64,000 bases of DNA from an uncultured Polaribacter sp. (GCA_965233795.1 OZ247578.1:313878-377877); one strand, 5' to 3'; counted from the stretch's first letter, positions 3,594 through 30,009 are shown. The notes: a model not told the origin generated them from the letters alone. A program made the numbers and translations.

Positions 3594-3640
3594 GTCATTC
3601 TTGTTGCCTGTGCTGAACTTGATTCAGTAATACAGGAATC
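3594..3640. repeat. Composite hairpin element: A-type arms (GTCATTC...CCTGT / ACAGGAATC) with a B-type core (GCTGAACTTGATTCAG) in the loop
   Basis: The sequence GTCATTCTTGTTGCCTGTGCTGAACTTGATTCAGTAATACAGGAATC was read directly. Confidence 0.7.
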
Positions 3641-3670
3641 TAAATAATAAGCAAAAAGTAAAAATAATGA

Positions 3671-3695
3671 GATTCCTGCCTTCGCAGGAATGACA
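3671..3695. repeat. Family A hairpin repeat GATTCCTGCCTTCGCAGGAATGACA
   Basis: 8-bp stem ATTCCTGC/GCAGGAAT with loop CTTC. The ATGACA flank (reverse complement of TGTCAT) is at the right end. Confidence 0.88.
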
Positions 3696-3706
3696 GAAAT
3701 AGGAAA

Positions 3707-5020
3707 ATGGAATTAAAAGAAAAACTCGTATCGTCGTATTTGGCGTTTGAAAACAAGGTAAATATTCATTCAGATATTCACGAAATCCGCTCAAAAGCCT
3801 TACAAAATTTTGAAGCTTTAGGATTTCCTACCAAGCAATTAGAGGCATGGAAATATACTTCGTTAAATGCTTTGTTAAAGAATGATTACAGCATTTTCCC
3901 AGATAAGGAAGTTGCAGTAGTTCTTGCCGATGTTAAAAAATATTTTATTCACGATATCGACTCTTATAAAATTGTTTTTATAGATGGGAAATACAGTTCA
4001 TTTTTATCGGAAACTACTCACGACAAGTTTGATGTGTGTTTGATGTCTTCTGCCTTAGAAAAAAGAAAATACAAACCTATTATTGAAAATTACTTTAATA
4101 AAATTGCCAAGCAAGACCATTTAACCTCTTTAAATACAGCTTTTGTAAATGAAGGAGCTTATATCTATATTCCTAGAAATGTAGAGGTAGAAAAACCCAT
4201 TCAAATCATCAATTTTACCACAGGTTCAGAAGCAGCAACCTTGGTACAACCTAGAAATTTAATTGTTGCTGAGCAGAATGCACATGTGCAGATTATTGAA
4301 CGTCATCAAAGTTTGACATCTCACCCTACATTATCCAATGTGGTTACCGAAATTTTTGCCGCAAAAGATGCTACAGTCGATTTTTATAAGATTCAGAATG
4401 ATGCGGTTACGGCTTCTTTGGTAGACAACACCTATGTAGAGCAAAAGTCGAACAGTGTCGTTTCTGTACATACATTCTCATTTGGCGGAAATATCACTAG
4501 AAATAATTTAAATTTTTACCAACGAGGCGAGCATATCGACTCTATTTTAAAAGGAATTACCATTCTTGAAGGCAAGCAACACGTAGACCATCATACCTTG
4601 GTACATCATATAGAACCCAATTGCGAAAGTCACCAAGATTATAAAGGCATCTATGACGAGCGTGCGACCGGTGTTTTTAACGGGAAAGTAATCGTTGAAA
4701 AAGAAGCACAAAAAACCAATGCCTATCAGCAAAATAACAACGTATTGGTAAGCGATAAAGCTACGATGAATGCCAAACCTCAATTAGAGATTTTTGCAGA
4801 CGATGTAAAATGTTCACACGGTTGTACGATTGGACAATTGGACGAGAATGCGTTGTTTTATATGCAACAACGTGGAATTCCACAAAAAGAAGCGAAGGCT
4901 TTGCTCATGTATGCTTTTGCCAATACGGTGTTAGAAAGTGTAAAAATACCCGAGGTAAAAAACAGAATTACCAAACTCATTGCCAATAAACTAAAGGTAA
5001 ATATTGGGTTTGATTTGTAG
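3707..5020 (+). CDS. sufD: Fe-S cluster assembly protein SufD
   Basis: 437 aa. The C-terminal SufB/SufD beta-helix region is recognisable (KPQLEIFADDVKCSHGCTIGQLDENALFYMQQRGI), and the gene follows sufC. Confidence 0.93.
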   Translation: MELKEKLVSSYLAFENKVNIHSDIHEIRSKALQNFEALGFPTKQLEAWKYTSLNALLKNDYSIFPDKEVAVVLADVKKYFIHDIDSYKIVFIDGKYSSFLSETTHDKFDVCLMSSALEKRKYKPIIENYFNKIAKQDHLTSLNTAFVNEGAYIYIPRNVEVEKPIQIINFTTGSEAATLVQPRNLIVAEQNAHVQIIERHQSLTSHPTLSNVVTEIFAAKDATVDFYKIQNDAVTASLVDNTYVEQKSNSVVSVHTFSFGGNITRNNLNFYQRGEHIDSILKGITILEGKQHVDHHTLVHHIEPNCESHQDYKGIYDERATGVFNGKVIVEKEAQKTNAYQQNNNVLVSDKATMNAKPQLEIFADDVKCSHGCTIGQLDENALFYMQQRGIPQKEAKALLMYAFANTVLESVKIPEVKNRITKLIANKLKVNIGFDL

Positions 5021-5042
5021 ATATTTTTTATAAAATTCGGTT

Positions 5043-5075
5043 AACCCCGAAAGGGTTTCAAACCCTTTCGGGGTT
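5043..5075. terminator. Bidirectional-type intrinsic terminator hairpin between convergent sufD and the M20 hydrolase gene
   Basis: AACCCCGAAAGGGTTTCAAACCCTTTCGGGGTT is a perfect palindrome, followed by a T-run on the plus strand. Confidence 0.8.
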
Positions 5076-5083
5076 TTTGTTTA

Positions 5084-6385
5084 TTACTTTTTCCCCAAAT
5101 AATCCAATGCCAAACTACTCAAGGTTTTTACTCCCAAAACAAAACCACTTTCATCGAGCATAAAATCAGGTGTATGATGTCCTGCGGCATCTTCGGGTTT
5201 TACATCCAGAGGTTTTCCTCCTAAAAAGAAATACAATCCGGGTACTTTTTGTTGGAAAAAAGAAAAGTCTTCTGCACCAGTAATGGCATCAATCTCTTTT
5301 ACCTGATTTTTCCCGGCAATACGTTGTAAAGTGGGTAACATGGTAGCGGTTAATTGTGGGTCGTTAAACGTAATCGGATACCCTTTGTCTATTTCTATAC
5401 TTGCCGTAGCTCTATGGGCTTGTGCAATGGCAGGCACCATTTCTTTCATTCTTTTATTAATGAAAGCCTGCATATCGTAATCTAAAGTTCTAATCGTTCC
5501 AACAATACGCGCATTTTCAGGAATAATATTGCTACGAATTCCAGCATTGATCATTCCAACCGTAATTACTGCTCCTTCTTTTGTGAGTTCCGATTCACGA
5601 CTAATAATAGTTTGTAGTCCGTTGATAATTTGTGCTGAAGTAACAATAGGATCTACACCATGCCAAGGTCTAGAACCGTGCGCTTGTTTTCCCAAAACAT
5701 CTATTTGGTAGGATTGGGAAGCTGCCATAATTCCGCCCGATTTATAGCTAATAGTTCCCACATCAAAACCAGCGCTAATATGCAATCCAAAAATAGCATC
5801 TACATCGGGGTTGGTTAAAACACCCTCTTTTACCATCAATTCAGCACCGCCTTCTTCACCTTTAGGTGCGCCTTCCTCAGCAGGTTGAAAAATAAATTTT
5901 ACCGTGCCTTTTATTTTGTGTTTCATTTTAGAAAGCACTTCCGCAACACCCATTAAAATAGCCACGTGAGAATCGTGTCCGCAAGCATGCATCACGCCTG
6001 TTTCTTTTCCGTTATAGGTAGCCGTTACGTTAGATTTAAAAGGCAAATCATTTCGCTCTGTTACAGGCAACGCATCCATATCGGCTCTTAGTGCTACTAC
6101 TTTTCCGGGCTTTTTTCCTTTTAAAATCCCTACAACTCCTGTAAAGGCAACACCTGTTTGTACTTCAATCCCCAAACTTTTTAAATGTGCTGCAATGTAC
6201 TTTGCAGTTTCAAATTCGCGATTAGAAAGTTCAGGATTTTGATGAAGATGTCTCCGCCATTCAATAACTTTAGGTTCTACTTCGCTAGATAGTTGGTTGA
6301 TTTTTGCATCGTTTTTTTGAGAGAATCCCGTAAAAACTGCTAGGAATAAAAGTGTAAAGAGGGTAGTTGCCTTCATAAAATACAT
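5084..6385 (-). CDS. M20-family amidohydrolase (aminoacylase / hippurate hydrolase-like), exported
   Basis: 433 aa. Signal peptide; MHACGHDSH metal-binding motif; FQPAEEG. The start may instead be the second Met, at 6376. Confidence 0.88.
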   Translation of the reverse strand: MYFMKATTLFTLLFLAVFTGFSQKNDAKINQLSSEVEPKVIEWRRHLHQNPELSNREFETAKYIAAHLKSLGIEVQTGVAFTGVVGILKGKKPGKVVALRADMDALPVTERNDLPFKSNVTATYNGKETGVMHACGHDSHVAILMGVAEVLSKMKHKIKGTVKFIFQPAEEGAPKGEEGGAELMVKEGVLTNPDVDAIFGLHISAGFDVGTISYKSGGIMAASQSYQIDVLGKQAHGSRPWHGVDPIVTSAQIINGLQTIISRESELTKEGAVITVGMINAGIRSNIIPENARIVGTIRTLDYDMQAFINKRMKEMVPAIAQAHRATASIEIDKGYPITFNDPQLTATMLPTLQRIAGKNQVKEIDAITGAEDFSFFQQKVPGLYFFLGGKPLDVKPEDAAGHHTPDFMLDESGFVLGVKTLSSLALDYLGKK

Positions 6386-6473
6386 AAAGTTTGGTTAGTT
6401 ATATGCCAAATATACCAATTTTATCATGTCTTTTAATTTACATCTACTACCTTTGTAATTTAAGCATAGAATC

Positions 6474-7688
6474 ATGTTTCCTGTAGAAAAAATTAGAGCA
6501 GACTTTCCTATTTTACAACGTACTGTAAACGGAAAACCGTTGGTGTATTTAGACAATGCGGCTACTTCGCAAACACCGCAAGTTGTTATGGATGCCATTG
6601 TAGATTATTACAGTAGTTACAATGCCAATATTCATAGAGGTGTGCATACTTTAAGTCAGGAAGCCACCGATAAATACGAAGAAGCTCGAATTAAAATTCA
6701 GCAACATTTTAACGCTGAGAAGGCTCACGAAATTATTTTTACTGCTGGAACTACACACAGTATTAATATTGTTGCTTCGGGATTTTCACAGCTTTTACAA
6801 AAAGGAGACGAAGTAATTATTTCTGCATTAGAGCATCATTCTAATATTGTGCCTTGGCAAATGTTGTGCGAAAAAACAGGTGCTATTTTAAAAGTGATTC
6901 CTATGAATGAAGAGGGCACTTTACAAATGGATGTGTATTACAGTTTGTTAAATAAAAAGACAAAGTTGGTATTTTGTAATCATATTTCGAACGCTTTAGG
7001 AACGATAAACCCTATTGAAGAAATGATTGATGCGGCGCATAAAGTACAGGCAGCAGTCTTAATTGATGGCGCACAAGCATGTCCGCACATACAACCCGAT
7101 GTACAAGCTTTGGATGTTGATTTTTACGTAGCTTCTGCGCATAAAATATGTGGGCCAACGGGCGTTGGAATCTTATACGGAAAAGAAATATGGTTAGAAA
7201 AATTACCGCCCTATCAAGGCGGTGGTGAAATGATAGATACCGTGACGTTTGAAAAAACAACCTATGCAGGTTTGCCTCATAAATTTGAAGCAGGAACACC
7301 TAATATTTGTGGTGGAATTGCTTTTGGGGTTGCTTTAGATTATATGCATGCGATAGGTTTCGACCAAATTTCTGCCTATGAAAATGAATTGCTAGATTAC
7401 GCAACACAAGAATTATTAAAAATAGACGGATTAAAGATTTACGGAACTTCAGAAAAGAAAACTTCGGTAATTTCTTTTAATATAGAAGGCATTCATCCGT
7501 ATGATATAGGAACTATTTTAGACAAACTAGGCGTTGCAGTAAGAACAGGACATCATTGTGCACAACCCATTATGGATTTTTATAAAATACCTGGAACCGT
7601 ACGGGCTTCTTTTGCTTTTTACAATACCAAAGAGGAGATTGATGTATTGGTAGCGGCAGTTGAAAAGGCGAAAATGATGTTGACGTAG
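6474..7688 (+). CDS. sufS: Cysteine desulfurase SufS (class V aminotransferase)
   Basis: 404 aa. PLP lysine context SAHKICGPTG and catalytic Cys loop RTGHHCAQP. Confidence 0.95.
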   Translation: MFPVEKIRADFPILQRTVNGKPLVYLDNAATSQTPQVVMDAIVDYYSSYNANIHRGVHTLSQEATDKYEEARIKIQQHFNAEKAHEIIFTAGTTHSINIVASGFSQLLQKGDEVIISALEHHSNIVPWQMLCEKTGAILKVIPMNEEGTLQMDVYYSLLNKKTKLVFCNHISNALGTINPIEEMIDAAHKVQAAVLIDGAQACPHIQPDVQALDVDFYVASAHKICGPTGVGILYGKEIWLEKLPPYQGGGEMIDTVTFEKTTYAGLPHKFEAGTPNICGGIAFGVALDYMHAIGFDQISAYENELLDYATQELLKIDGLKIYGTSEKKTSVISFNIEGIHPYDIGTILDKLGVAVRTGHHCAQPIMDFYKIPGTVRASFAFYNTKEEIDVLVAAVEKAKMMLT

Positions 7689-7858
7689 TCAAAATTATCA
7701 TTATATATTGGCTATGTTTAGATTCCGAAATAGATTCCAGTTTATATTTTTTATAAAAGATACCAGATACGAACATAGTTCCACATAGCCTATGTTTTCT
7801 ATGTTCCTATGTGGTTAAAAAAATAGATTCTTCGTTTGCTTCAGAATAAAAAATACAC

Positions 7859-8611
7859 TTACTTTTTATCAATAATCGTAGCACTCGCTTGTGCTGTTGG
7901 AAAAACTACTAAATCTTCAATATTTACATGATAAGGTCTTGTAATTACAAAATGAATGATATCGGCAATATCTTCGGCAAGTAGAGGTTGGTATCCTTGA
8001 TAAGGAATTTTTGATTTCTCCTCATCTCCTTTAAATCTAACTTCTGAAAAAGCAGTATGTACCATTCCCGGGTGAATTCCAGCAACGCGAACTCCATGCT
8101 TATTCATATCCATTCGCATGGCTTTATTCAATGCATTTACAGCCGATTTTGTGGCACAATACACATTTCCATTCGGATAGACTTCTTTACCAGCAGTAGA
8201 GCCAATATTTACAATAAAGCCGCTATTTCTTGCAACCATTTGCGGAATAATCGCTTTAGAAACATAGAGCAATCCTTTTATATTGCTATCAATCATGGCA
8301 TCCCAGTCGTCTAAACTTCCATTTTGAATGGGGTCTAAACCGTGTGCATTTCCCGCATTATTAATGAGAATATCAATGTGTTGAAAGTCTTTTGGTAGGC
8401 TGTCAATTGCTTTTTGAACCTCCTCTCTTTTTCCTACATCAAAAGTTAAAATAGTTACTTCTACCAAAGAACTTAATGCTGCTTGAAGCGCTTTTAATTT
8501 TGCTGTTTTTCTTCCACAAAGAATCAATCGAATACCATTCTTTGCAAATAGTTTTGCGGTGGCTTCTCCAATTCCTGATGTTGCGCCTGTGATGAATGCG
8601 GTAGTTTTCAT
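7859..8611 (-). CDS. SDR-family NAD(P)-dependent oxidoreductase (YdfG-like)
   Basis: 250 aa. TGATSGIGEA glycine-rich motif, NNAG, YCATK (YxxxK). Confidence 0.88.
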   Translation of the reverse strand: MKTTAFITGATSGIGEATAKLFAKNGIRLILCGRKTAKLKALQAALSSLVEVTILTFDVGKREEVQKAIDSLPKDFQHIDILINNAGNAHGLDPIQNGSLDDWDAMIDSNIKGLLYVSKAIIPQMVARNSGFIVNIGSTAGKEVYPNGNVYCATKSAVNALNKAMRMDMNKHGVRVAGIHPGMVHTAFSEVRFKGDEEKSKIPYQGYQPLLAEDIADIIHFVITRPYHVNIEDLVVFPTAQASATIIDKK

Positions 8612-8632
8612 TGTTTGTGTTTGGGTTAGAGA

Positions 8633-8657
8633 GATCCTGAAACAAGTTCAGGATGAC
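8633..8657. repeat. Family B hairpin repeat GATCCTGAAACAAGTTCAGGATGAC
   Basis: Stem ATCCTGAA/TTCAGGAT. The GTCAT flank is at the right end (reverse orientation). Lies between the SDR gene and bioB. Confidence 0.88.
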
Positions 8658-8665
8658 GTTGGTTT

Positions 8666-9763: not shown

Positions 9764-9820
9764 AAATTTGCGTTGATTTTACGATTCAAAAATAGTTATA
9801 TTCTTAAAATAAAAACACTT

Positions 9821-10918: not shown

Positions 10919-10960
10919 CCTTTGTAATTGATTGAAGAAAGTTAAAATTAAGGAAAATTT

Positions 10961-12139
10961 TTATTTTTCAATGAGTATTGATACCGCATTTCCACCAAAA
11001 CCAACAGCATTTACCAATATTTTTTTAAGTTCTTTGGGTGGTGATTGTTTTTCCGCAAAAGGAACTGGAATTACTTCTTGGTATTTTAGCATGAGTAAGG
11101 CTAATTCTAAACTTAACATTCCTGAAGTACCAAACGTATGTCCTAATTTCCATTTGTTAGTAGTTAAAAAAGGAATTTTGTTAAAAAACACTTTTTGAAT
11201 GGCATTATATTCCGAAAAATCTCCTTTTAACGTACCTGGTGCGTGCATCACAATAGCATCAATTTCATCAGGAGAAGTGAATCCCAAAGCCATTTTCATG
11301 GATCTTTGAAAACATTGAGCTTCGGTAGAAATGGAAGTATGATGTTCTAAAATTTCTGTTGCATAACCTATTCCTGTAATAAGCGCTAATCTGTTTTGTT
11401 GTATGCCTTTTTCTAAACAGCTTACTGCAGCACCTTCACCAAGAACCATGGTGTTTTTTTTCTTTTTGAAATCGAGTGCGCGACAAGGGTACGATACTTC
11501 ATCGCATTCATGGGATACTTCATTGCATTCAGTATAAACTTTTAGGGCTTGCATTTGTGCGATGGTAAAATCAGTTAAAGGCGCTTCACTTCCGCCAACT
11601 AAAAATTTATCGGAGAGTCCTGCTTGTATCCAAGCAATACCATTTAAAACAGCATGTAAGGCGGTAGAGCAGGTGATAGAATGCGAAATTTCTGGACCTT
11701 TTGTTTGTAAATCATGCGCAACCCAAGAAGAAATATTTCCCAAAGTAGTAGTTGGTGAACTTAAAATAGCGGTTTTTTGAGTTTTTAAAAAAGCAGTGTG
11801 GTGCTTTTCAAAAAGAGCTGTAGCGCCTCTTGAAGATCCTATGTTAATTCCAAAATCGTCACCTACTTTCCAACCCGCTTTTAAACAAGCCTTTCTAGCT
11901 ACTAAAATTGCATATAAAACGGTGTTGTCTAAGTTTTTGTATTTTAAAGATGCTGTTTTTAAAGCAACGATTTCTTTTTGATCTTCTTCGGATATTTTTG
12001 CTACCCAAGCAGTAAAATTTTCAAATGCTGTTTTAGAAATAGAATGTTGCTTGCTTTTATATCTTTTCCAAATAGAGGTTTCATTATTTCCTAAAGCGGA
12101 AATAGAAGATATGGCGGTAATGGAAATAGGTTGAAACAA
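10961..12139 (-). CDS. Beta-ketoacyl synthase (KAS I/II-like, Cys-His-His triad) embedded in the biotin cluster
   Basis: 392 aa. Active-site Cys SITCSTALHAV, His in VMHAPGT, Lys/His in NKWKLGHTFGTSG, C-terminal GFGGNA. Confidence 0.85.
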   Translation of the reverse strand: MFQPISITAISSISALGNNETSIWKRYKSKQHSISKTAFENFTAWVAKISEEDQKEIVALKTASLKYKNLDNTVLYAILVARKACLKAGWKVGDDFGINIGSSRGATALFEKHHTAFLKTQKTAILSSPTTTLGNISSWVAHDLQTKGPEISHSITCSTALHAVLNGIAWIQAGLSDKFLVGGSEAPLTDFTIAQMQALKVYTECNEVSHECDEVSYPCRALDFKKKKNTMVLGEGAAVSCLEKGIQQNRLALITGIGYATEILEHHTSISTEAQCFQRSMKMALGFTSPDEIDAIVMHAPGTLKGDFSEYNAIQKVFFNKIPFLTTNKWKLGHTFGTSGMLSLELALLMLKYQEVIPVPFAEKQSPPKELKKILVNAVGFGGNAVSILIEK

Positions 12140-12198
12140 GTCTTTTATTTTAGGTAATGCTTACAAATGTAAAACATTGTTTAATGATTGTTTAAAGA

Positions 12199-12225
12199 TT
12201 TGACAACTTTTCAAAAGTTGTCAAA
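12199..12225. repeat. Family D palindrome TTTGACAACTTTTCAAAAGTTGTCAAA (copy 1)
   Basis: Read directly. It overlaps the bioA stop codon (12221-12223). A second copy lies at 23533-23560. Confidence 0.88.
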
Positions 12226-13486
12226 CTTCTTCTAACACTTGCTCAATAGCGGTATACACTTTTTCCAATTGTTCAGGTGTAATTACATACGGAGCTTGAA
12301 TATAAATAGTATTTCCTAGCGGTCGTAAAAACACACCTTTATTCATAAAAAAATCGAACAATTGATCGCGTAAATTCCCATATCGTTCCATTTGGACATC
12401 CAAATCTAGGGCATAAATTATCCCTTTTTGCCGAGTAGATTTTACTTTGGGATGGTTTTGAATTCGTTTATCAAAGGCTTCATGCGAAGCTACAATCTGC
12501 TGTATGTTTTCTTGTATTTCTGATGAAGTCAACAATTCAATTCCTGCCAAAGCTGCCGTACATGCCAACGGGTTCGCAGAATAGGTATGTCCGTGAAACA
12601 AACCTTTTTTGATATCATCGCTATAAAAAGCATCATAAATTTCTTGAGAGCAACTTGTAATTGCCATGGGTAAAAGCCCTGCGGTTAGTGCCTTGCTTAA
12701 ACAAATAATATCAGGTTTTTCATGCATGTATTCTGAAGCAAAGTATTTTCCTGTCTTTCCAAATCCTGTCATTACCTCATCGGCAACTGTAATAATTTGA
12801 TGTTGTTTAAAAAAGGATAAAATACGATCTAAGCCTTCGACGTTGTGCATTTTCATAGCGGCTGCACCTTGTACCAAAGGCTCGTAGACAAATCCCGCTA
12901 TTTCATATATTTTTACAAGTATTTCTAGTTGTTGTAAAATTGCATCGTGGTTTTCTCCATTAGGAGTAGGAATTCGTTGTACGTCTAAGAAAAAATCTTC
13001 AAACGGACCGTTGTATACCGATAAGCCAGAAACACTCATCGCACCAAAAGTATCGCCATGAAAACCGTCTTCAAAAGCGACTAACGTGCTTCTTTTTTCA
13101 CCTTTATTAAAATGATATTGCAGCGCCATTTTAATTCCAATTTCCACAGCAGAAGAACCATTGTCTGAAAAGAAAATCTTTTGCTGATTTTCAGGTAAAA
13201 TTTCAATGAGTTTTTCTGATAATTCAATAGCAGGTTGGTGTGTAAACCCACTAAAAACTACCTGATCTAATTGTTGCATTTGGTTAGAAACTCTATTTGT
13301 GATGTACTCATTACAATGTCCGTACATAGCAGTATACCACGAAGCAATGGCATCAATATATTCATTGCCATTTTCATCTGTTAAAATACATCCTTTTGCT
13401 CTGATAATTGCCAGTGTTTCAGGATGTGTTTTATGTTGCGTTAGTGGATGCCAAAGGTGTTTTTTATCGCGTTCTTGTAGCATCAT
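12221..13486 (-). CDS. bioA: Adenosylmethionine-8-amino-7-oxononanoate aminotransferase BioA
   Basis: 421 aa. Class III aminotransferase with LWHPLTQ, ADEVMTGFGKTGK and LSKALTAG (PLP Lys). Confidence 0.95.
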   Translation of the reverse strand: MMLQERDKKHLWHPLTQHKTHPETLAIIRAKGCILTDENGNEYIDAIASWYTAMYGHCNEYITNRVSNQMQQLDQVVFSGFTHQPAIELSEKLIEILPENQQKIFFSDNGSSAVEIGIKMALQYHFNKGEKRSTLVAFEDGFHGDTFGAMSVSGLSVYNGPFEDFFLDVQRIPTPNGENHDAILQQLEILVKIYEIAGFVYEPLVQGAAAMKMHNVEGLDRILSFFKQHQIITVADEVMTGFGKTGKYFASEYMHEKPDIICLSKALTAGLLPMAITSCSQEIYDAFYSDDIKKGLFHGHTYSANPLACTAALAGIELLTSSEIQENIQQIVASHEAFDKRIQNHPKVKSTRQKGIIYALDLDVQMERYGNLRDQLFDFFMNKGVFLRPLGNTIYIQAPYVITPEQLEKVYTAIEQVLEEV

Positions 13487-14097
13487 ACTATTTGTTGAAA
13501 TTTTTCTGCATAATCTTTCACTACATTTTTATCAAAATAAGGTTCTTCATCTATACGTCCAAGAACAGGTACACCGGTCATTTTTTTGATGATTTCTTCT
13601 GTAGAAGGGTGCTCATTTCCACTAAAAATAAGCGCAACATCAAACCCTTTTTCTTGTAATAATTTTACGGTTAGTAGTGTGTGATTGATGCTCCCCAAAT
13701 AGTGACGAGATACTACAATTACGGTATAATCTGGAGGGATGATGTCTAAAATAGTATCCGTATCGTTTAAAGGAACTAAGAGTCCTCCAGCACCTTCAAC
13801 AACTAAATGATTGTTTGTTTTAGGAGGCGTGATTTTAGTCAATTCAATGTCAATATTATCAATTGCAGCAGCGGCATGCGGACTCATAGGTGTTTGCAAA
13901 GCATAACTATTTTTATGAAATACCGATTTGGAATTAGAAATCAATTTTTCAACTTTATAGGTATCAGAATTATCCAAATCGCCTGCTTGTATAGGTTTCC
14001 AATAATCGGCTTCTAAAGCTTCTACTAAAATAGCCGAAACAATGGTTTTTCCTACTTCGGTAGAAATGCCAGTAATGAAGTATTTTTTAGAGTTCAT
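13483..14097 (-). CDS. bioD: Dethiobiotin synthase BioD
   Basis: 204 aa. P-loop-like GISTEVGKT and VVEGAGGLLVP. Overlaps the bioA start by 4 nt (ATGA). Confidence 0.93.
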   Translation of the reverse strand: MNSKKYFITGISTEVGKTIVSAILVEALEADYWKPIQAGDLDNSDTYKVEKLISNSKSVFHKNSYALQTPMSPHAAAAIDNIDIELTKITPPKTNNHLVVEGAGGLLVPLNDTDTILDIIPPDYTVIVVSRHYLGSINHTLLTVKLLQEKGFDVALIFSGNEHPSTEEIIKKMTGVPVLGRIDEEPYFDKNVVKDYAEKFQQIV

Positions 14098-14111
14098 ATT
14101 TTCGTTCTATC

Positions 14112-14136
14112 GTCATGCTGAACTTGTTTCAGCATC
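14112..14136. repeat. Family B hairpin repeat GTCATGCTGAACTTGTTTCAGCATC
   Basis: Stem ATGCTGAA/TTCAGCAT, with the GTCAT flank at the left end. Lies between bioD and the GIY-YIG gene. Confidence 0.9.
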
Positions 14137-14150
14137 GCATCTTAATATTA

Positions 14151-14429
14151 TTAGTAATCTAAGGTTTTTAATCTAGGGTTTAATTTCTTAATTAAATTCA
14201 ATTTCCATTCTTTGTGCCAATTTTTTAATTGTTTTTCTCTTGCAATTGCTAGATTAATATCTAAAAATTCTTCAAAATAGATCAAATCTTTTACATTATA
14301 TTTTTTGGTAAATAAAGAAGCAGTTTCTTCATAATGCTCATATAATCTTTTTTCTAAATTGGCTGTCACTCCAATATAAAAGGTTGTTCTATATTTATTT
14401 GTCAATATATAGATATAGCTCTTTTTCAT
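14151..14429 (-). CDS. GIY-YIG nuclease family protein (small stand-alone URI domain)
   Basis: 92 aa. YIYILTN...TFYIGVTANLEKRLYEH...AREKQLKNW matches the GIY-YIG / R / E / N motif order. Confidence 0.9.
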   Translation of the reverse strand: MKKSYIYILTNKYRTTFYIGVTANLEKRLYEHYEETASLFTKKYNVKDLIYFEEFLDINLAIAREKQLKNWHKEWKLNLIKKLNPRLKTLDY

Positions 14430-14442
14430 TCCTTAGCGTTAT

Positions 14443-14470
14443 GTGACCCTGAAACAAGTTCAGGGTGACG
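14443..14470. repeat. Family B hairpin repeat GTGACCCTGAAACAAGTTCAGGGTGACG, inverted relative to 14112-14136
   Basis: Stem ACCCTGAA/TTCAGGGT, with the GTCAC flank at the right end. Lies between the GIY-YIG gene and bioF. Confidence 0.9.
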
Positions 14471-14479
14471 ATTTTAAAT

Positions 14480-15628
14480 TTATTGATCTTTCACAAAAGT
14501 ACACAACAACTCCAAAACAAGTGTAATTTCTTCCTTAGAATTGTAATTGTGTAAACAAAAGCGCAACCGTTCTTCACCTTTAGAAACGGTAGGAGATAGA
14601 ATAGGTTTTATTTCGAATCCTTTTTCTTGTAAGGTTTTAGCAATCTGATGTATATTTTTCTCATTGGGAATAATACAACAATGAATTGCAGAGGTGCTTT
14701 TTATAAAAAAAGAAGCTAACTTCAATCGGTTTATTTCTTCATTAAAAAAGGCAATGTTCTCTTGCAATTGTTTTTGATTAGAAGTATTTTCGAGCGTTTT
14801 ATACCCCATTTTTATCGTAGCTAAAGCGTGTGGAGGAAGTGCTGTTGTGTAGATAAAACTTCTAGAAAAATTGACTAAATAATTTTTTAGATTTTTACTC
14901 CCTAAAATAGCAGCACCATGGCATCCTAATGCTTTCCCGAAAGTTACAATTCTTGCAAAAACACTATTTTCTATACCTAATGTTTGTATTTTTCCACAGC
15001 CTTGTTTTCCAAAAACACCTAAGGAATGCGCTTCGTCTACCACAAAATGTGCTCGGTATTTTTCACAAAGTTTTGCCATAGCAAGTATATCGGGCGTATC
15101 TCCATCCATAGAAAATACGGCTTCTGTAACTACATAGATTTCATTTTTGTCATGCTGAACTCGTTTCAGCATCTCATTCAAATTGTTTACATCATTGTGC
15201 TGAAATTTATACCCTTTTGCTTTGCATAACTGAATGCCGTCTCTAATAGAAGCGTGGATAAATTCGTCATACAAAACAATATCTCCACGTTGTGGAATGG
15301 CTCCAAAAAAACCCAAATTGGCATTGTACCCTGAGTTAAAAATTAGAGCGGCTTCGGATTGATGAAATGTACAAATGTCTTTTTCAACTTCCTCGTACAA
15401 ATCAGAATTTCCAGAAAGCAATCGAGATCCTGTTGCCCCATTCGCAATAAGATGGTTGTTTTTTAGGAATTGATGTACTTTCTCAAAAATTGCAGTAGAT
15501 TTTGCAAAACCCAAATAATCATTCGAAGAAAAGTCGATAGTATTTAAAGGCTTTTGTAAAGAACGAAAAGCATGGTCAACTTTTCGTTTTTCTAATTTTT
15601 CTAAGAGTTTTTTTGGAAAGTGCTCCAT
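14480..15628 (-). CDS. bioF: 8-amino-7-oxononanoate synthase BioF
   Basis: 382 aa. VTEAVFSMDGD, VDEAHSLG, TFGKALG (PLP Lys). Confidence 0.93.
   Translation of the reverse strand: MEHFPKKLLEKLEKRKVDHAFRSLQKPLNTIDFSSNDYLGFAKSTAIFEKVHQFLKNNHLIANGATGSRLLSGNSDLYEEVEKDICTFHQSEAALIFNSGYNANLGFFGAIPQRGDIVLYDEFIHASIRDGIQLCKAKGYKFQHNDVNNLNEMLKRVQHDKNEIYVVTEAVFSMDGDTPDILAMAKLCEKYRAHFVVDEAHSLGVFGKQGCGKIQTLGIENSVFARIVTFGKALGCHGAAILGSKNLKNYLVNFSRSFIYTTALPPHALATIKMGYKTLENTSNQKQLQENIAFFNEEINRLKLASFFIKSTSAIHCCIIPNEKNIHQIAKTLQEKGFEIKPILSPTVSKGEERLRFCLHNYNSKEEITLVLELLCTFVKDQ
15149..15173. repeat. Family B hairpin repeat GTCATGCTGAACTCGTTTCAGCATC located inside the bioF coding sequence
   Basis: Read directly. 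On the minus strand it is translated in frame as MLKRVQHD within ...NNLNEMLKRVQHDKNEIYVVTE... Confidence 0.88.
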
Positions 15629-15700
15629 CTTTACAAAAATACAAAATGTTCCATACAGTAATCATTGTCCGTTTGTATCTTTACACTTTTAAAACAGGTC

Positions 15701-16844: not shown

Positions 16845-16921
16845 CGTATGTAATTTTAATACCAATGTAGCTATTTTTAATTTAGAAATAGTAATTTTGA
16901 GAAATTCCATATAAAAACAAT

Positions 16922-18268: not shown

Positions 18269-18281
18269 GGTAACTTGTACA

Positions 18282-18305
18282 ATTCCTGCCTTCGCAGGAA
18301 TGACA
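18282..18305. repeat. Family A hairpin repeat ATTCCTGCCTTCGCAGGAATGACA
   Basis: Identical to the core of 3671-3695. Confidence 0.88.
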
Positions 18306-18368
18306 GCGGTTTTTTAAAAATTATTATTTAAAATGGTGAAAATCAAATTTTTATACATATAACATGCA

Positions 18369-18728
18369 TTAAAAATGCAAAAAAGCATCTTCTAAATGTT
18401 CTATTTTAAACTCATTTTCTTCTTTTAAAATAGCAATAATATCAAATCGAACCTCTACCTCTAAATCTTTTGAAGTAACATACGCATCAATAGCACTTAC
18501 TAATAATTTTATTTTTTTAGGATTTACAAAATCTTGTGGATTTCCAAACACATCAGAAGATCTCGTTTTTACTTCTACAACAGCTAAGGTGTTTTCTTGT
18601 TGTGCAATAATATCTACTTCTGCTTTTAAATAACGATAGTTTTTTTCTAGAATTTTATAGCCTTTTTCTAGTAAGTAATCTACCGCTAATTGTTCTCCTT
18701 TTTTACCAAGTTCGTTATGTATAGCCAT
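18369..18728 (-). CDS. YraN-family (UPF0102) endonuclease-like protein
   Basis: 119 aa. GEQLAVDYLLEKGYKILEKNYR...EVDIIA...VVEVKTR...RFDIIAI is the typical YraN pattern. Confidence 0.88.
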   Translation of the reverse strand: MAIHNELGKKGEQLAVDYLLEKGYKILEKNYRYLKAEVDIIAQQENTLAVVEVKTRSSDVFGNPQDFVNPKKIKLLVSAIDAYVTSKDLEVEVRFDIIAILKEENEFKIEHLEDAFLHF

Positions 18729-18824
18729 TTTTTTATTTAATTTAAAGTTGAAAAGTGCTTAAACGTAAATTCGATGTAAAACATTTTGGTTACTAATCGC
18801 TTAATTTTTTACTTTGAAAGTAAA

Positions 18825-18848
18825 TGTCATTCCTGCGAAAGCAGGAAT
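18825..18848. repeat. Family A hairpin repeat GTCATTCCTGCGAAAGCAGGAATC
   Basis: Exact reverse complement of 18869-18892. Confidence 0.92.
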
Positions 18849-18868
18849 CTAAGTGTTTCAATTTTAAT

Positions 18869-18893
18869 AGATTCCTGCTTTCGCAGGAATGAC
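18869..18893. repeat. Family A hairpin repeat GATTCCTGCTTTCGCAGGAATGACA
   Basis: Together with 18825-18848 it forms a perfect 24-nt inverted pair around a 20-nt spacer. Confidence 0.92.
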
Positions 18894-18933
18894 AAATACA
18901 ATTAGGAACTTATATTATTTTCTTAAATCGAAA

Positions 18934-21317: not shown

Positions 21318-21384
21318 AAAAACACTTTTGGTAAATGTATCTATTTTCAGCGGGTTAAAAAAATAGCTTCTGATGACTTTTTTG

Positions 21385-21392
21385 TACTTTTG
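21385..21392 (+). promoter_or_regulatory. Candidate Bacteroidota -7 promoter box TACTTTTG upstream of metG
   Basis: Matches TAnnTTTG, 40 nt upstream of the metG ATG. No clear -33 element was seen. Confidence 0.3.
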
Positions 21393-21431
21393 CTTGCCTA
21401 AAATGATGCCACACCAAATTTAGAAACCGCA

Positions 21432-23501: not shown

Positions 23502-23532
23502 GTTTTTTACTTGGATAAAAAACACCTATCTG

Positions 23533-23560
23533 ATTTGACAACTTTTAAAAGTTGTCAAAT
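23533..23560. repeat. Family D perfect 28-nt palindrome ATTTGACAACTTTTAAAAGTTGTCAAAT (copy 2)
   Basis: Read directly. Lies between metG and the ABC-F gene. Confidence 0.9.
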
Positions 23561-23574
23561 CCCAAAAAGAATTC

Positions 23575-25431: not shown

Positions 25432-25443
25432 TAAAATTATATT

Positions 25444-25469
25444 GTCATTCCTGCCTTCTAAGGAATGAC
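25444..25469. repeat. Family A variant hairpin GTCATTCCTGCCTTCTAAGGAATGAC
   Basis: The GTCATTCC/GGAATGAC arms pair with each other. Lies between the convergent ABC-F and exonuclease genes. Confidence 0.8.
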
Positions 25470-25483
25470 AGTACCTAATAAAA

Positions 25484-26200
25484 CTAAACACGTACAATAT
25501 CACTTTCTTGTAAAAGCGGTTCATTATTAAAACGCAATAGGATTTGCGCTACAGCAATGGTGTCTTTTTCGCAATACGCTACAATTCTATCAAGGTTTTT
25601 TTCTTGGTAGTATACCTGCGCTACTTCGCTACCGTTAATATCGTCCTTTGGTGAAGGAATCCCTAGAATACCCGTTAATAATTTTAAAGAAGAATAGTGC
25701 TTATAATCGCCAAACTTCCATAATTCTAGCGTGTCTAAATGAGGTACTTGCCAAGGTTTTTTACCAAAGAGATTTAATTTTTTAGGCAATGTTATTTGAT
25801 GGATAATCATTCTACGCGCTAGAAAAGGGAAATCAAATTCTTTTCCGTTATGGGCACACAAAAGATGTTGTTGTTTGTTAAAATGCGTATCTAAAAGCGT
25901 TTTAAAATTTGTTAAGATTTTGTGTTCATCATCACCAGAAAACGAGGTAACTCTCAACTGTTTTTCAGTGGTTGTTTCTACAAAATACCCCACAGAAATA
26001 CAAATAATTTTGCCGAACTCTGCCCAAATTCCAGCTCGAGCATAAAATACTTCTAAGGGTGTTTCTGCATCTCTTTGATACGCTGTTTTATCATTGAATA
26101 GTGTTTGTATTTCTTCTGGAACATCTTCCCAATAGGCATATTCTGGCACAGTTTCGATATCTAAAAATAAAATATTTTTAAAGTTAATTTTTAGATTCAT
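25484..26200 (-). CDS. RNase H-like 3'-5' exonuclease (PolB-exonuclease-like, DEDDy-type)
   Basis: 238 aa. LFLDIETV (Exo I), AHNGKEFDFPFLARR (Exo II), YCEKDT (Exo III). Confidence 0.75.
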   Translation of the reverse strand: MNLKINFKNILFLDIETVPEYAYWEDVPEEIQTLFNDKTAYQRDAETPLEVFYARAGIWAEFGKIICISVGYFVETTTEKQLRVTSFSGDDEHKILTNFKTLLDTHFNKQQHLLCAHNGKEFDFPFLARRMIIHQITLPKKLNLFGKKPWQVPHLDTLELWKFGDYKHYSSLKLLTGILGIPSPKDDINGSEVAQVYYQEKNLDRIVAYCEKDTIAVAQILLRFNNEPLLQESDIVRV

Positions 26201-27030
26201 TTCTGAATGACTAGTTTTTGTGTCATTATTTTTTCACCTTCGATAATTCGTACAATATAAATCCCTTTTTGCATTGCAGAGATATCTATTGAAGTGCTAT
26301 TTTCAGTAAATATTTTTGAGTATATCTTTTTTCCTAACACATTAAATAGTGTTACTTTTTTTTGACCAGTACTTGTTGTGGAAATTGTAATTTTTTCACC
26401 AATTACAGGATTTGGATAAACTTTAAATCCCTTTATGGTATATTCATTTGTAGCAGCGGTAGCAAAATTAGCAGTTCTAAAAGTAGGGCTTTTTACTTCA
26501 TATGTACCATCATCTTTTCTTTGGATAGATTCCGTAGTTTTTGCACTATTTATGTTTTCATTATACTGTACGGTTTCTCCAAAGCCCGATAGTAAAACGC
26601 TATCATCACTTTGCCCTGTGTCATAAATAACCACATCAATTAGATTATCAGTAGTAATTTCCGTATCATTCGGAAATGAAGAAGCATCTTCTTGATATAC
26701 GGCTACAGCATCAGCACCATTTTGTAAAGTGCTTAGTGCAAGGTCTGTAGCAGCATTGTAAATTTCACTACTTGCTAACATAAAGAACCCATTAGCGTCT
26801 GTGGTAAATCCATCTAAATCGTAAGAAGCATAGCTTTTATCATCACTTCCATTAAATAGTACAACAACGTAACCGTCTAAAGAAGTGTTAGGCGTCCATA
26901 AAAGCTCAATAAATTCTGCATTATCAGTACCATCTTGATCTGCATCAATCTCATTAATTACAATTTGAGAGTAGGTAAATGAAGTAAATAATACAGTGAA
27001 TACAAGGGTAAGTGTGTAATTCTTTTTCAT
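26197..27030 (-). CDS. Secreted lamin-tail-domain (LTD)-like protein with T9SS C-terminal sorting domain
   Basis: 277 aa. Signal peptide; IVINEIDADQDGTDNAEFIELL is LTD-like; the C-terminal FKVYPNPV...GIYIVRI...QKLVIQK is a type A T9SS CTD pattern. 4-nt overlap with the downstream exonuclease gene. Confidence 0.7.
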   Translation of the reverse strand: MKKNYTLTLVFTVLFTSFTYSQIVINEIDADQDGTDNAEFIELLWTPNTSLDGYVVVLFNGSDDKSYASYDLDGFTTDANGFFMLASSEIYNAATDLALSTLQNGADAVAVYQEDASSFPNDTEITTDNLIDVVIYDTGQSDDSVLLSGFGETVQYNENINSAKTTESIQRKDDGTYEVKSPTFRTANFATAATNEYTIKGFKVYPNPVIGEKITISTTSTGQKKVTLFNVLGKKIYSKIFTENSTSIDISAMQKGIYIVRIIEGEKIMTQKLVIQK

Positions 27031-27210
27031 AATTTAATTTTTTAGTTTTTCAAATATAAACTTTTTTATGAAACTTTAAAATAAATTTCAAAAACTTCAT
27101 AATTTAAGTTATCTAAACTTTAAGCAATTGTTAAGGATGTAAATTAAAATGCTAGAAAGATTTCATTTCAGTTTTAATGATTATTTTTGAGAGAACAATC
27201 TTAAAAAGAT

Positions 27211-27906
27211 ATGAGTAATACAGACATTAAAATTTTGTTAGTAGATGATGAGCCCGATATTCTAGAAATTGTTGGATACAATTTAAAATCGAACGGTTAT
27301 CAGGTTTTTACAGCTTCAAATGGTGTTGAAGCGGTAAAAAAAGCTAAAAAAATAAATCCTCATTTAATTTTGTTAGACATTATGATGCCAGAAATGGATG
27401 GTATCGAGGCTTGCGAAAAAATAAGAGCGATTAAAAGCTTAGAACATGTAATTATTGCTTTTTTAACAGCTCGATCAGAAGATTATTCACAAGTGGCAGG
27501 GTTTGATGTAGGTGCAGATGACTATATTACGAAGCCCGTAAAACCTAAAGTATTGGTGAGTAAAGTAAAATCTTTATTAAGAAGGTTAAAAAGCAGTAAT
27601 GAAGAAGCATCTGAGGCAACTACCACAATAGGAAATATTGTAATTAATAGAGAAGAATACGTTGTTTTTAAAGCAGGTGAAAAAATTGTTTTACCAAGAA
27701 AAGAGTTTGAATTATTATCGTTATTAACATCAAAACCCGATAAAGTTTTCAAACGAGAAATTATTCTAGACAAAGTTTGGGGAAATGAGGTGGTTGTTGG
27801 CGGACGAACCATTGATGTACATATTCGAAAGCTGAGAGAAAAAATAGGCGATCATCATTTTAAAACTGTAAAAGGAGTAGGATATAAATTTGTTTTAGAC
27901 GCTTAA
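27211..27906 (+). CDS. OmpR/PhoB-family response regulator
   Basis: 231 aa. Receiver domain (DDEPDI...LLDIMMPEMDG) plus winged-helix output (TIDVHIRKLREKI...VKGVGYKF). Confidence 0.93.
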   Translation: MSNTDIKILLVDDEPDILEIVGYNLKSNGYQVFTASNGVEAVKKAKKINPHLILLDIMMPEMDGIEACEKIRAIKSLEHVIIAFLTARSEDYSQVAGFDVGADDYITKPVKPKVLVSKVKSLLRRLKSSNEEASEATTTIGNIVINREEYVVFKAGEKIVLPRKEFELLSLLTSKPDKVFKREIILDKVWGNEVVVGGRTIDVHIRKLREKIGDHHFKTVKGVGYKFVLDA

Positions 27907-27924
27907 AATAACCGTATTAACTTT

Positions 27925-28965
27925 ATGAAGTTAAAAAAAACCTATTCTTACGCACTTTCATCCTCTTTTTATCTAACCATTATTGCAGTTCTAGCAATTA
28001 CTGTTTCGTATTTCCTGTTTTTTAAAACCTTAGGAGTAGGTGTTTTAGTCATTTTTACAATGGTCTTATTTTTAAGTGCCTTTTTTATTATTCAATATAG
28101 AACTGAAAAATTTATTTACAAACGTGTTAAAAAAATCTATGATGAAATTTCAATTCTTGATATCGGCGACTTTAATAAAAAAACGGTAACCACCGATATT
28201 GAAAAACTTTCTGAAAAAGTAAAAGATTTTGTAGAGGGCAAACGATTAGAAATACAATCTTTAACTGAAAGAGATTCTTTTCGTCAAGATTTTTTGGGAA
28301 ATGTAGCACATGAGTTAAAAACACCTCTTTTTACCGTACAAGGTTATATTTTAACTTTGATTGAAGGCGCTGCCGAAGACAAACAAATTAGAACAAAATA
28401 TTTAGATAGGGCTAATAAAGGAGTAGAAAGACTCACAGCAATTATAAAAGACTTAGATATGATTGCGAAACTAGAAACACATGGCATAAAAATGAATATT
28501 GAAAACTTTAATATGCTTGAATTGATTCAGAATGTGTTTGATTTGTTTGAAATGAGGGCTAAAAAAAGAAATATTACACTGCAATTTGATCGTATTTATG
28601 AGTTTCCTGTTTTTGTAAAAGGAGACATAGAAAAAATAGAACAAGTACTTATTAATTTAGTGGTAAACTCTATAAAATATGGTAAGCCCAATGGAATAAC
28701 TACAGTAGGAATAGATACCTATGACCATAAAAAATTTATAGTGAAAGTAATAGATAATGGAGAAGGCATTCATCAAGAACACATTCCACGATTATTTGAA
28801 CGTTTTTATCGTGTAGATCAAAGTAGATCTAGAGATCAAGGAGGTTCTGGCTTGGGGTTATCTATTGTAAAACATATCGTAGAAGCACACAATCAAAACA
28901 TATTTTTAAAAACTGTTTTTGGTGAAGGTTCCGAATTTTCATTTACGATGGAAAAGGCGAAATAA
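27925..28965 (+). CDS. Sensor histidine kinase (HisKA + HATPase_c)
   Basis: 346 aa. Two TM helices, H-box FLGNVAHELKTP, N-box LVVNSIKY, G-boxes DNGEGI and GGSGLGLSIV. Confidence 0.9.
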   Translation: MKLKKTYSYALSSSFYLTIIAVLAITVSYFLFFKTLGVGVLVIFTMVLFLSAFFIIQYRTEKFIYKRVKKIYDEISILDIGDFNKKTVTTDIEKLSEKVKDFVEGKRLEIQSLTERDSFRQDFLGNVAHELKTPLFTVQGYILTLIEGAAEDKQIRTKYLDRANKGVERLTAIIKDLDMIAKLETHGIKMNIENFNMLELIQNVFDLFEMRAKKRNITLQFDRIYEFPVFVKGDIEKIEQVLINLVVNSIKYGKPNGITTVGIDTYDHKKFIVKVIDNGEGIHQEHIPRLFERFYRVDQSRSRDQGGSGLGLSIVKHIVEAHNQNIFLKTVFGEGSEFSFTMEKAK

Positions 28966-29991
28966 ATCTGCGTTGAGTGCTGTTTTTTCTGCTTTCAATC
29001 CCTTGTAATTTTCAATTTCTTCTAATTTTTTTAAGGTAAAATCTTTTAAGTTCGTAAAAGGAGCTAATTGTCTTTTTTTGAGATGTTTTGCTAAATATTC
29101 TTGTTCTGTTTGATATTTTGTAGGAATAAAAAACACTTTTTTGTGCAATACAGCTACATCCATTATAGAGGAATATCCCGATCTACAAAGAACTATTTTT
29201 GAGGCATTGATGCGTTTTTCTAATTCTTTAGAAAGTAAAAAATTATAGATACAAATATTGTTTTTAAACGTTTTCTTTTGTCCGTCTTCTATTTTTCCTT
29301 GTACTAAAACAATATTTTGCGAGGTGTTTTTAAAGGTTTCTACAAGGCGATTTTCGAGTTGTGTTCGATTGGGTTCTGGACCTGATAATATGATTAATAT
29401 ATCTGTAGTGATAGGGATATTTTCTTTTTTAAACCGACTTAAAACACCGATGTATTTCTTTTTAATATGCTTGTTTTTTGTCTGTGATAATTTTCCTGAA
29501 AATTCATTATTAGGTGTATCTGGAATCCAACATTCATCAAATTTTTTGATAATAGATTGGTGAACTTTACTTGTGAAAAAAGTAGTAAAGCCTGAAAGTA
29601 CTTGTAATTGATGTGTAATGTAAACAGAAGTTACTTTTGTGCTTCGAACTCCAAAACGGTTATCGGAAATAATACCTACAATATTCTTTTCTTTTTTAAG
29701 AAAATTTGCAATTGTTTTTCTTTCTTTTTTTACTGCCGAAAAAAATTTGGGAAGTTGTAAAAACAATCGCCATTTTAAATGTTTTCCGTAAGAAATTGAG
29801 TAGGAGGGCAGTTCTAAAAAAGTTAATTCAGGAAACTCCTTTTGAAGAAAAACCAAGGCTTTTCCATCAGAAGCAATAATAGGTGTGAAATTGTTTTTTA
29901 TAAGTAAATGAACGATAGGAATACAACGAGAAGCATGTCCTAATCCCCAATTTAAAGGCGCAACAATTACTTTTTTTTCCATTATTGTCAT
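28939..29991 (-). CDS. GT-B fold glycosyltransferase (MurG/UDP-glycosyltransferase-like)
   Basis: 350 aa. N-terminal APLNWGLGHASRCIP is typical of GT28/GT1-like enzymes. The first ATG lies inside repeat 29987-30009, so the true start is probably the ATG at 29982 (MEKKVIV). Confidence 0.72.
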   Translation of the reverse strand: MTIMEKKVIVAPLNWGLGHASRCIPIVHLLIKNNFTPIIASDGKALVFLQKEFPELTFLELPSYSISYGKHLKWRLFLQLPKFFSAVKKERKTIANFLKKEKNIVGIISDNRFGVRSTKVTSVYITHQLQVLSGFTTFFTSKVHQSIIKKFDECWIPDTPNNEFSGKLSQTKNKHIKKKYIGVLSRFKKENIPITTDILIILSGPEPNRTQLENRLVETFKNTSQNIVLVQGKIEDGQKKTFKNNICIYNFLLSKELEKRINASKIVLCRSGYSSIMDVAVLHKKVFFIPTKYQTEQEYLAKHLKKRQLAPFTNLKDFTLKKLEEIENYKGLKAEKTALNADLFRLFHRK

Positions 29992-30009
29992 TCCTGTGAA
30001 ACAGGAATC
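29987..30009. repeat. Family A hairpin repeat GTCATTCCTGTGAAACAGGAATC
   Basis: Stem ATTCCTGT/ACAGGAAT, a compensated C>T / G>A change relative to the other A copies. Confidence 0.88.

Follow-up and report, generated by a model that had tools for sequence, protein, structure and literature searches.

GC-rich hairpins in a Polaribacter genome region as probable recognition repeats of Ssn-type GIY-YIG nucleases

The region analysed here, referred to as the window, is a stretch of 64,000 nt from the genome of an uncultured Polaribacter sp. (GCA_965233795.1 OZ247578.1:313878-377877). Hairpin counts and coordinates refer to this window, and strand signs give the orientation of an element. The window carries eleven GC-rich hairpin elements, of which ten are clean or nearly clean hairpins and one is composite, where none is expected by chance; a first-pass annotation had listed the same eleven, and all were found again within 1-2 nt. 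It also carries a gene for a small GIY-YIG protein, located in the biotin operon between two inverted copies of the hairpins. We describe the anatomy of these hairpins, their association with the gene, and the covariation of their stems between a fixed head and tail. The hairpins are probably, at roughly four chances in five, recognition repeats of Ssn-type GIY-YIG nucleases, belonging to the class known as CGTC-tagged REPs (repetitive extragenic palindromic elements) or NTS/SRM repeats. The elements, assigned to families A and B, and the GIY-YIG gene are the following.

3594-3640, plus strand: composite element with degenerate family A arms GTCATTCTTGT ... ACAGGAATC around a family B-like core GCTGAACTTGATTCAG
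3671-3694, minus strand: family A (NTS-like) copy in the spacer between sufC and sufD
8633-8657, minus strand: solo family B copy in the spacer between bioB and a short-chain dehydrogenase/reductase (SDR) gene
14111-14136 (consensus match 14112-14136), plus strand: cGTC-ATGCTGAA-CTTGT-TTCAGCAT-Cgc, the family B hairpin on the downstream side of ssn, inverted with respect to its upstream counterpart
14151-14429, minus strand: ssn homolog encoding a 92-aa single-domain GIY-YIG protein, between bioF (14480-15628) and bioD (13483-14097)
14443-14470 (consensus match 14445-14469), minus strand: cGTC-ACCCTGAA-CTTGT-TTCAGGGT-Cac, the family B hairpin on the upstream side of ssn
15149-15173, plus strand: family B copy within bioF, in frame (..NEMLKRVQHDKNE..), the minus strand encoding EMLKRVQHD
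18281-18304, minus strand: family A copy downstream of yraN, with T in place of the conserved post-stem C
18826-18849, plus strand: family A copy that opens the inverted pair upstream of yraN
18870-18893, minus strand: family A copy, the second of this pair, in which the heads point outward and the tails face each other
25444-25469, strand unassigned: degenerate, double-headed family A copy (GTCATTCCT..AGGAATGAC) in which the changes of the inner stem are uncompensated (GC opposite TA)
29987-30009, plus strand: family A variant ATTCCTGT/ACAGGAAT with a T-A pair and a 3-nt loop, in the spacer between a glycosyltransferase gene and purD

The family A consensus, GTCATTCCTGC-N4-GCAGGAATC, is matched exactly by the copies at 3671-3694, 18826-18849 and 18870-18893, with one mismatch at 18281-18304 and with three at 25444-25469, and the family B consensus, GTCATSCTGAACTTGTTTCAGSATC, is matched by four copies; shuffled sequences gave 0.00 matches in either case. 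When folded as single-stranded DNA (ssDNA), each non-composite copy formed a predicted stem of 8 bp (-6 to -8.9 kcal/mol, z -3.2 to -7.3), and the composite one formed two short helices of 5 and 6 pairs with an internal loop between them (z -2.6). The GTC head and the C following the stem were both present in eight of the ten non-composite copies. At 18281-18304 and 25444-25469, the post-stem base is T and G, respectively. The claim of the first-pass annotation that the stems differ only by paired changes was confirmed in part: compensated changes were found on independent data (see below), whereas those in the inner stem of 25444-25469 are uncompensated. All copies are confined to 1-30 kb of the window. 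None was found in the polysaccharide cluster or in the remainder of the 30-64 kb half, which also contains housekeeping genes including gldB and gldC.

The 92-aa protein matches the Pfam family PF01541 (GIY-YIG) over residues 3-78 with E=2.2e-15 and has no second domain; its gene is the only ssn-like open reading frame (ORF) in the window. The upstream hairpin lies 15 nt before the ssn ATG and 10 nt past the bioF stop codon, the downstream one 15 nt past the ssn stop codon. Both have their heads directed away from the gene, and these two inverted family B copies are 308 nt apart. The first-pass annotation had stated that the window encodes no RAYT-type enzyme for such repeats; this gene, whose homologs are flanked in the same manner across the 80 species compared below, encodes the probable enzyme and was overlooked. 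Orthologous cassettes in other genera keep an upstream hairpin of the ACCC type and a downstream hairpin of the ATGC type. A strain represented by the Logan contigs DRR671598 and DRR671575 (L001 and L002; comparison loci are cited by such numbers), 98.6% identical to window positions 13520-15175 over 1650 nt, has an Ssn protein and flanking hairpins identical to those of the window. Searches of the window protein against NCBIfam and PADLOC gave weak matches only, to the GIY-YIG motif region, and among solved structures no Ssn was found, the nearest being the UPF0213 protein 1ywl (E=0.027). Only 23 distant Ssn relatives were detected in 2.9 million viral contigs, which indicates that this is not a phage-borne system.

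Homologs of the window protein are numerous and of similar length (90-110 aa). A word-index search returned 2651 of them, the best being 73-100% identical and originating from marine Flavobacteriaceae, and an exhaustive search gave 9133 cluster representatives of the protein family at E<=1e-3. We compared one locus from each of 80 species, chiefly Bacteroidota (with Flavobacteriaceae as the main group) and a few members of other phyla. Nearly all of these loci have the motif cGTCAyyCTGAActtgtTTCAGrrTC some 15 nt ahead of the start codon and, about 16 nt past the stop codon, its inverted copy. Under a strict definition, a hairpin was present within 80 nt upstream in 56 of the 80 loci (head-outward in 49) and within 80 nt downstream in 63 (head-outward in 53); 36 loci had head-outward hairpins on both sides, and the median gap between gene and hairpin was 15-16 nt. 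The upstream stem was unlike the downstream stem in 34 of these 36 cassettes, 14 of which combined ACCC upstream with ATGC downstream. The density of B-type hairpins fell from 7.8/kb at 0-150 nt from ssn to 0.96 at 150-500 nt, 0.16 at 1-2 kb and 0.017 at 7-10 kb. Over the 80 species, they were thus approximately 100 times denser within 150 nt of ssn homologs than at 0.5-10 kb (0.017-0.16/kb).

Covariation was measured in a set of hairpins selected near ssn by the sole anchor GAA-N5-TTC, with the outer stem unused in the selection. Among the 258 unique hairpins obtained, the outer stem positions were paired in 87-90%, with three to four Watson-Crick types at each; one outer pair occurred as G-C in 89 hairpins, C-G in 80, T-A in 41 and A-T in 13. 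Shifting the partner by one column reduced pairing at these positions to 12-50%. Outside the stem, the head (C.60 G.78 T.85 C.76) and the post-stem C (C.81) were conserved, and a fixed C-C mismatch closes the stem. The covariation of outer pairs together with the fixed head and tail points to selection acting on the structure plus a fixed flank. The covariation count thus bears out the first-pass description of the elements as oriented, REP-like hairpins in which a short 5′ head is invariant and the stem covaries, and its view that such a pattern is the signature of a protein acting on folded ssDNA proved correct.

Ssn proteins were described by Chenal et al. (2025, Nat Commun 16:2388; PMC11893778) as single-domain GIY-YIG nucleases of about 94 aa (cd10448), the genes of which are bracketed by inverted hairpin repeats (NTS/SRM). 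The Neisseria repeat, NTS (CGTCATTCCCGCGMAVGCGGGAATCYRG), is an oriented form of dRS3. The Neisseria enzyme SsnA binds NTS only as ssDNA, cuts a few nt 5′ of it and leaves the RNA version unbound; cleavage depends on the 3 nt that precede the palindrome, the C that follows it matters most for binding, and SsnA reduces transformation by DNA bearing NTS (PMC11893778). The published association of ssn with repeats is 71%, and the Bacteroidetes are never named in the main text of that study (Chenal et al. 2025; PMC11893778). The repeats had been catalogued by Di Nocera, De Gregorio and Rocco (2013, BMC Genomics 14:522; PMC3733652) as CGTC-tagged REPs with 8-9 bp stems starting with AT and 4- or 5-nt loops, present in five phyla including Bacteroidetes. 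According to these authors, CGTC REPs 'lack a dedicated transposase', their in-frame intragenic copies are RPE-4/6, and the CGTC-1 group (4-nt loop) includes the Neisseria dRS3 (PMC3733652). The first-pass annotation knew of no description of the family as a mobilisable system in Flavobacteriia; CGTC-tagged REPs were catalogued in 2013 (PMC3733652) and their link to Ssn was established in 2025 (PMC11893778).

The window protein was connected with this system through a metagenome scan for NTS-type inverted pairs spaced 290-320 nt apart, which yielded at least 120 loci. The enclosed ORF fits the profile of the window protein's family in 87 of 124 NTS-type units (E 1e-8 to 1e-34). NTS-bracketed ORFs (GTCATTCCCGCGAAAGCGGGAATC), including one of 94 aa, are 41-53% identical to the window protein over the full length (E ~1e-27 to 1e-30). 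Residues Y7, Y18 and E65 of the window protein are invariant in the alignments and correspond to positions 6, 17 and 64 of the 94-aa NTS-flanked homolog, which is the numbering of the catalytic residues Y6, Y17 and E64 of Nm SsnA. Family B is probably the cognate repeat of the Ssn homolog at 14151-14429, its cassette residing in the biotin operon and its other copies being scattered nearby.

A single compensated pair (C-G to T-A) separates family A from the Neisseria NTS. Exact family A stems, ATTCCTGC, flank Ssn genes in low-GC metagenome contigs, and the profile of these A-type proteins found homologs 80-86% identical in Winogradskyella, Olleya, Flaviramulus and an abundant marine Flavobacteriaceae metagenome-assembled genome (MAG). 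In a Winogradskyella genome and in contigs of the marine Flavobacteriaceae MAG type (L203 8777-11198; L204, L206), the A-type ssn (97-100 aa) is located between trpB and trpA and flanked by inverted family A hairpins, ctGTCATTCCTGCG..GGCAGGAATCCA. A Bacteroid-trp leader RNA lies upstream of the trp operon that holds it (L203 3579-3698). Many genera that carry the B-type also have this A-type paralog. GIY-YIG proteins of Rickettsia, a genus named by Chenal et al. (PMC11893778), are close relatives of A-type Ssn. The window contains no A-type ssn, and its source genome was not seen among the best 120 A-type Ssn homologs. The cognate enzyme of the NTS-like family A is thus most plausibly a second Ssn paralog, encoded at trpB/trpA of related Flavobacteriaceae, outside the window.

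Three family A copies surround yraN (UPF0102, a predicted nuclease; 18369-18728), one downstream of the gene and the inverted pair upstream of it; a comparable inverted family A pair is present at 12680/12724 in L012. YraN was considered as the family A enzyme and judged unlikely, since an Ssn paralog with exact A-type flanks exists.

Several points weigh against the assignment of the hairpins to Ssn. The nuclease activity of the window protein, as of any Ssn of the Bacteroidota, is presumed by homology with Neisseria SsnA, and its membership in Ssn/cd10448 is suggested indirectly, via the NTS-flanked ORFs. The published SRM pattern, HGTCWYN(0-2)YYVSBRHN(0-5)WNVSBRGN(0-2)RNCYNB, had no hit in the window, matched neither family consensus and found nothing near ssn in any of the 80 B-type loci. 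When the Neisseria palindrome was altered with the hairpin kept, activity was abolished (PMC11893778), which raises doubt whether one enzyme could serve B stems as different as ACCC, ATGC and ATCC. The SRM pattern also missed the A-type flanks in L203 and L204. In the controls, it matched canonical NTS and had a hit in 102 of the 120 NTS-type loci; by inspection, family A fails it exactly at the two bases of the compensated pair. Since the pattern finds none of the Flavobacterial hairpins examined, the 71% association of ssn with repeats is probably an underestimate.

If the hairpins are Ssn recognition repeats, the mechanism can be proposed as follows. Whenever DNA becomes single-stranded (during replication, conjugation or transformation, or in an ssDNA phage), the strand with (C/T)GTC-stem-loop-stem-C would fold. 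The nuclease of about 92 aa would bind the hairpin, reading the post-stem C and parts of the stem sequence, and would then cut at a short distance (a few nt) 5′ of the GTC head. Its substrates would include neither the complementary strand nor double-stranded DNA or RNA. The fixed head and post-stem C found here agree with the mutagenesis of SsnA, in which cleavage depended on the 3 nt before the palindrome and binding chiefly on the post-stem C (PMC11893778). In Flavobacteriia, the system might serve to limit the recombination of incoming ssDNA, to propagate the hairpins, or both.

An alternative is that the hairpins act mainly in RNA, as terminators, stabilisers of mRNA 3′ ends or processing sites in operons, and that their link to Ssn is incidental. 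Most copies are found in short spacers, either inside transcription units (suf, bio) or where these end, and would be carried on transcripts, one of them (3672-3691, minus strand) scores as terminator-like, and both REP and CGTC elements have been proposed as RNA elements (PMC3733652). However, a T-run follows just one of nine copies in the scanned region (3-22 kb), on which ground intrinsic terminators were rejected. Moreover, the copies run both with and against transcription, the head and tail, which are conserved and asymmetric, sit outside the stem, one copy is inside the coding sequence of bioF, and the RNA version of the repeat is left unbound by SsnA (PMC11893778). Rfam gave no match at the gathering threshold in the window and seven loci; around the cassette, relaxing the limit to E<=10 produced no meaningful match either. 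A main function in RNA therefore seems improbable to us; a secondary RNA effect may accompany the Ssn role.

A different enzyme was also considered. The first-pass annotation compared the hairpins with enterobacterial REPs recognised by RAYT proteins, and they could accordingly be REPs mobilised by a RAYT (an IS200/IS605-type Y1 transposase) encoded elsewhere in the genome. The general likeness is real, as both have a short invariant 5′ head beside a covarying hairpin and some inverted pairs. The head, however, is (C/T)GTC instead of GTAG, Di Nocera et al. found no transposase tied to CGTC REPs (PMC3733652), and the hairpins are tightly and specifically linked to another enzyme family, the GIY-YIG nucleases known as Ssn (PMC11893778). 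The phmmer search with E. coli RayT against six-frame ORFs gave no hit, either in the window (E<=10) or in the related loci, about 2 Mb in total (E<=0.01), and Pfam annotation of 50 window genes (340-55009) revealed no transposase and no Y1_Tnp. We regard mobilisation by RAYT as extremely unlikely, and the comparison as misplaced as far as the enzyme is concerned.

The distribution of the Ssn cassette and of solo hairpins raises the question whether Ssn only cuts. The hairpin-ssn-hairpin unit might be a present or past mobile element, in which Ssn would be responsible for the spread of solo hairpins, the unit acting as an ssDNA transposon based on GIY-YIG and having distinct left and right ends; this would extend the assignment of the hairpins to Ssn rather than replace it. 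Its architecture resembles that of an insertion sequence, as remarked by Chenal et al. (PMC11893778), and the unlike left and right stems of the head-outward cassettes as well as the decay of copy density with distance from ssn are in favour of such an element. B-type ssn was found in the bio operon at 17 loci in more than 10 genera (window 12221-15628; L003-L016, L028, L039, L042). The cassette occupies the bioD/bioA junction in most of these loci and bioF/bioD in the window, L010 and L012, and both junctions are occupied in L012. The use of two junctions speaks for movement, as does the fact that Ssn identities do not sort by junction, the window protein being 85% identical to that of L003 and 77% to that of L012. 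On the other hand, the syntenic position of the orthologs in the bio operon of these genera, at 65-88% identity, looks like long-term residence. Synteny, which the first-pass annotation would have counted against mobility if strict, thus divides the copies: those flanking ssn are syntenic across genera, and the solo ones are lineage-specific. The solo family B copy after bioB (8633-8657), for example, is absent at the orthologous site in 13 other genomes, which again suggests mobility.

A further argument for movement is provided by a surface loop of BioF (window 15100-15230, residues ~150-162), a hot spot which contains hairpins or other repeats in most genera examined. The hairpins occur there in either orientation (window versus L007, L009 and L014); degenerate remnants are present in L004, L008, L012 and L015, a hairpin with an insert in its own loop in L010, and unrelated GC-rich repeats in L003, L005, L016, L039 and L042, with nothing at this position in L006, L011 and L028. 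Nested or split hairpins, interrupted in or near the loop by a further short sequence, were found three times (window 3594-3640, L010 bioF ~2410-2470, L012 ~11270-11345). They count on the same side, and they hint that existing hairpins are preferred insertion sites. Taken together, the two junctions, the lineage-specific solo copies, the BioF hot spot and the nested hairpins argue for evolutionary turnover of the hairpins and do not in themselves identify the mover. Against a mobile element stand the single ssn copy in the window, the lack of any observed target-site duplication or recent identical insertion, the nature of GIY-YIG as a hydrolytic nuclease without known strand-transfer chemistry, and the fact that no Ssn is known to transpose. 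We therefore consider it rather unlikely that the unit is a mobile element. The more specific scenario, a GIY-YIG-driven ssDNA element that settled in essential biosynthetic operons (bio, trp) and from there seeded copies, with a preference for nearby sites, in coding loops (bioF) and in the loops of existing hairpins, is similarly doubtful. If it were true, Ssn would be the founding member of a new class of transposase or homing enzymes, and the spread of CGTC-type REPs across phyla would be explained.

Repeats of other kinds were also observed. The repeat ..TCGAGCGCAGTCGAGA.., encoding SRAQSRS-like peptides, occurs in the BioF loop of three genera (L042 ~8440-8520, L039 ~830-870, L016 ~8200-8250) and may represent another hairpin family. 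Intergenic spacers of the window contain two copies of an AT-centred palindrome, (C/T)AGGTTTTAAAAACCTG (1812-1828 and 57548-57564; 0.03 expected), which is unrelated to the GTCAT families described here. Between the convergent genes sufD and that of an M20 peptidase, positions 5043-5075 form a perfect 15-bp stem with T-runs on both sides; it is unlike the GTCAT hairpins and is the clearest terminator-like hairpin of the region, probably a bidirectional one.

The results place two sequence-divergent hairpin/nuclease pairs of marine Flavobacteriaceae in the Ssn/SRM system. To our knowledge, its characterisation had so far been limited to Neisseria and Wolbachia. There is demand for Ssn enzymes as tools for programmable ssDNA cutting, and two candidate enzyme/site pairs, with loops of 4 nt and 5 nt, are available here; the A and B pairs may differ in specificity. 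The bio and trp cassettes, their unlike ends and the in-frame hot spot in bioF bear on the question of whether Ssn only cuts or also spreads its repeats.

Among the known systems, REP/BIME (bacterial interspersed mosaic element) repeats with RAYT (TnpA_REP) of Enterobacteria and Pseudomonas share with the present elements a small nuclease gene between inverted hairpins, a 4-nt head that is invariant and is read on ssDNA, and numerous solo copies in the spacers between genes. They differ in having a GTAG head and an HUH/Y1 transposase, neither of which is found in the window. The Rickettsia palindromic elements RPE-4 and RPE-6 have been equated with CGTC REPs (PMC3733652), and the bioF copy at 15149-15173 resembles them in keeping the reading frame of a functional-looking gene. 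True insertions in the BioF loop are present in several other genera. The window copy, compared by eye with E. coli BioF, seems to add no length to this loop, unlike RPE.

The resemblance to CGTC-tagged REPs is closer. The unpaired CGTC/TGTC head, the AT-starting stem of 8-9 bp, the short unpaired tail, the inverted dimers and the occasional in-frame intragenic copies are common to both, family A corresponding to the type with a 4-nt loop and family B to that with a 5-nt loop; in the window, one stem starting with AC and one 3-nt loop are exceptions. The tail here is mostly CTC or CTA and not the consensus CCA, although the A-type copies flanking ssn in L203/L204 end in CCA. Whereas the 2013 study knew no dedicated enzyme, a linked GIY-YIG gene has been identified here.

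The closest relative is the Ssn/NTS system. Both have a single-domain GIY-YIG protein (~92-100 aa) which keeps the residues matching the catalytic Tyr, Tyr and Glu of SsnA, a gene bracketed by inverted oriented hairpins with extra copies dispersed and clustered nearby, and a repeat composed of a (C/T)GTC head, an 8-bp stem starting with AT, a loop of 4-5 nt and a post-stem C; family A is a single compensated pair away from NTS (CGTCATTCCCGCGMAVGCGGGAATC). The differences lie in the host, as Flavobacteriia are a class unmentioned in the main text of PMC11893778, in the family B stem AYSCTGAA with its 5-nt loop, and in the location of the cassettes, which occupy conserved positions in biosynthetic operons (bio, trp) of different genera. 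In terms of this comparison, the Flavobacterial hairpins and their Ssn proteins are new members of the known Ssn/SRM (CGTC-REP) system.

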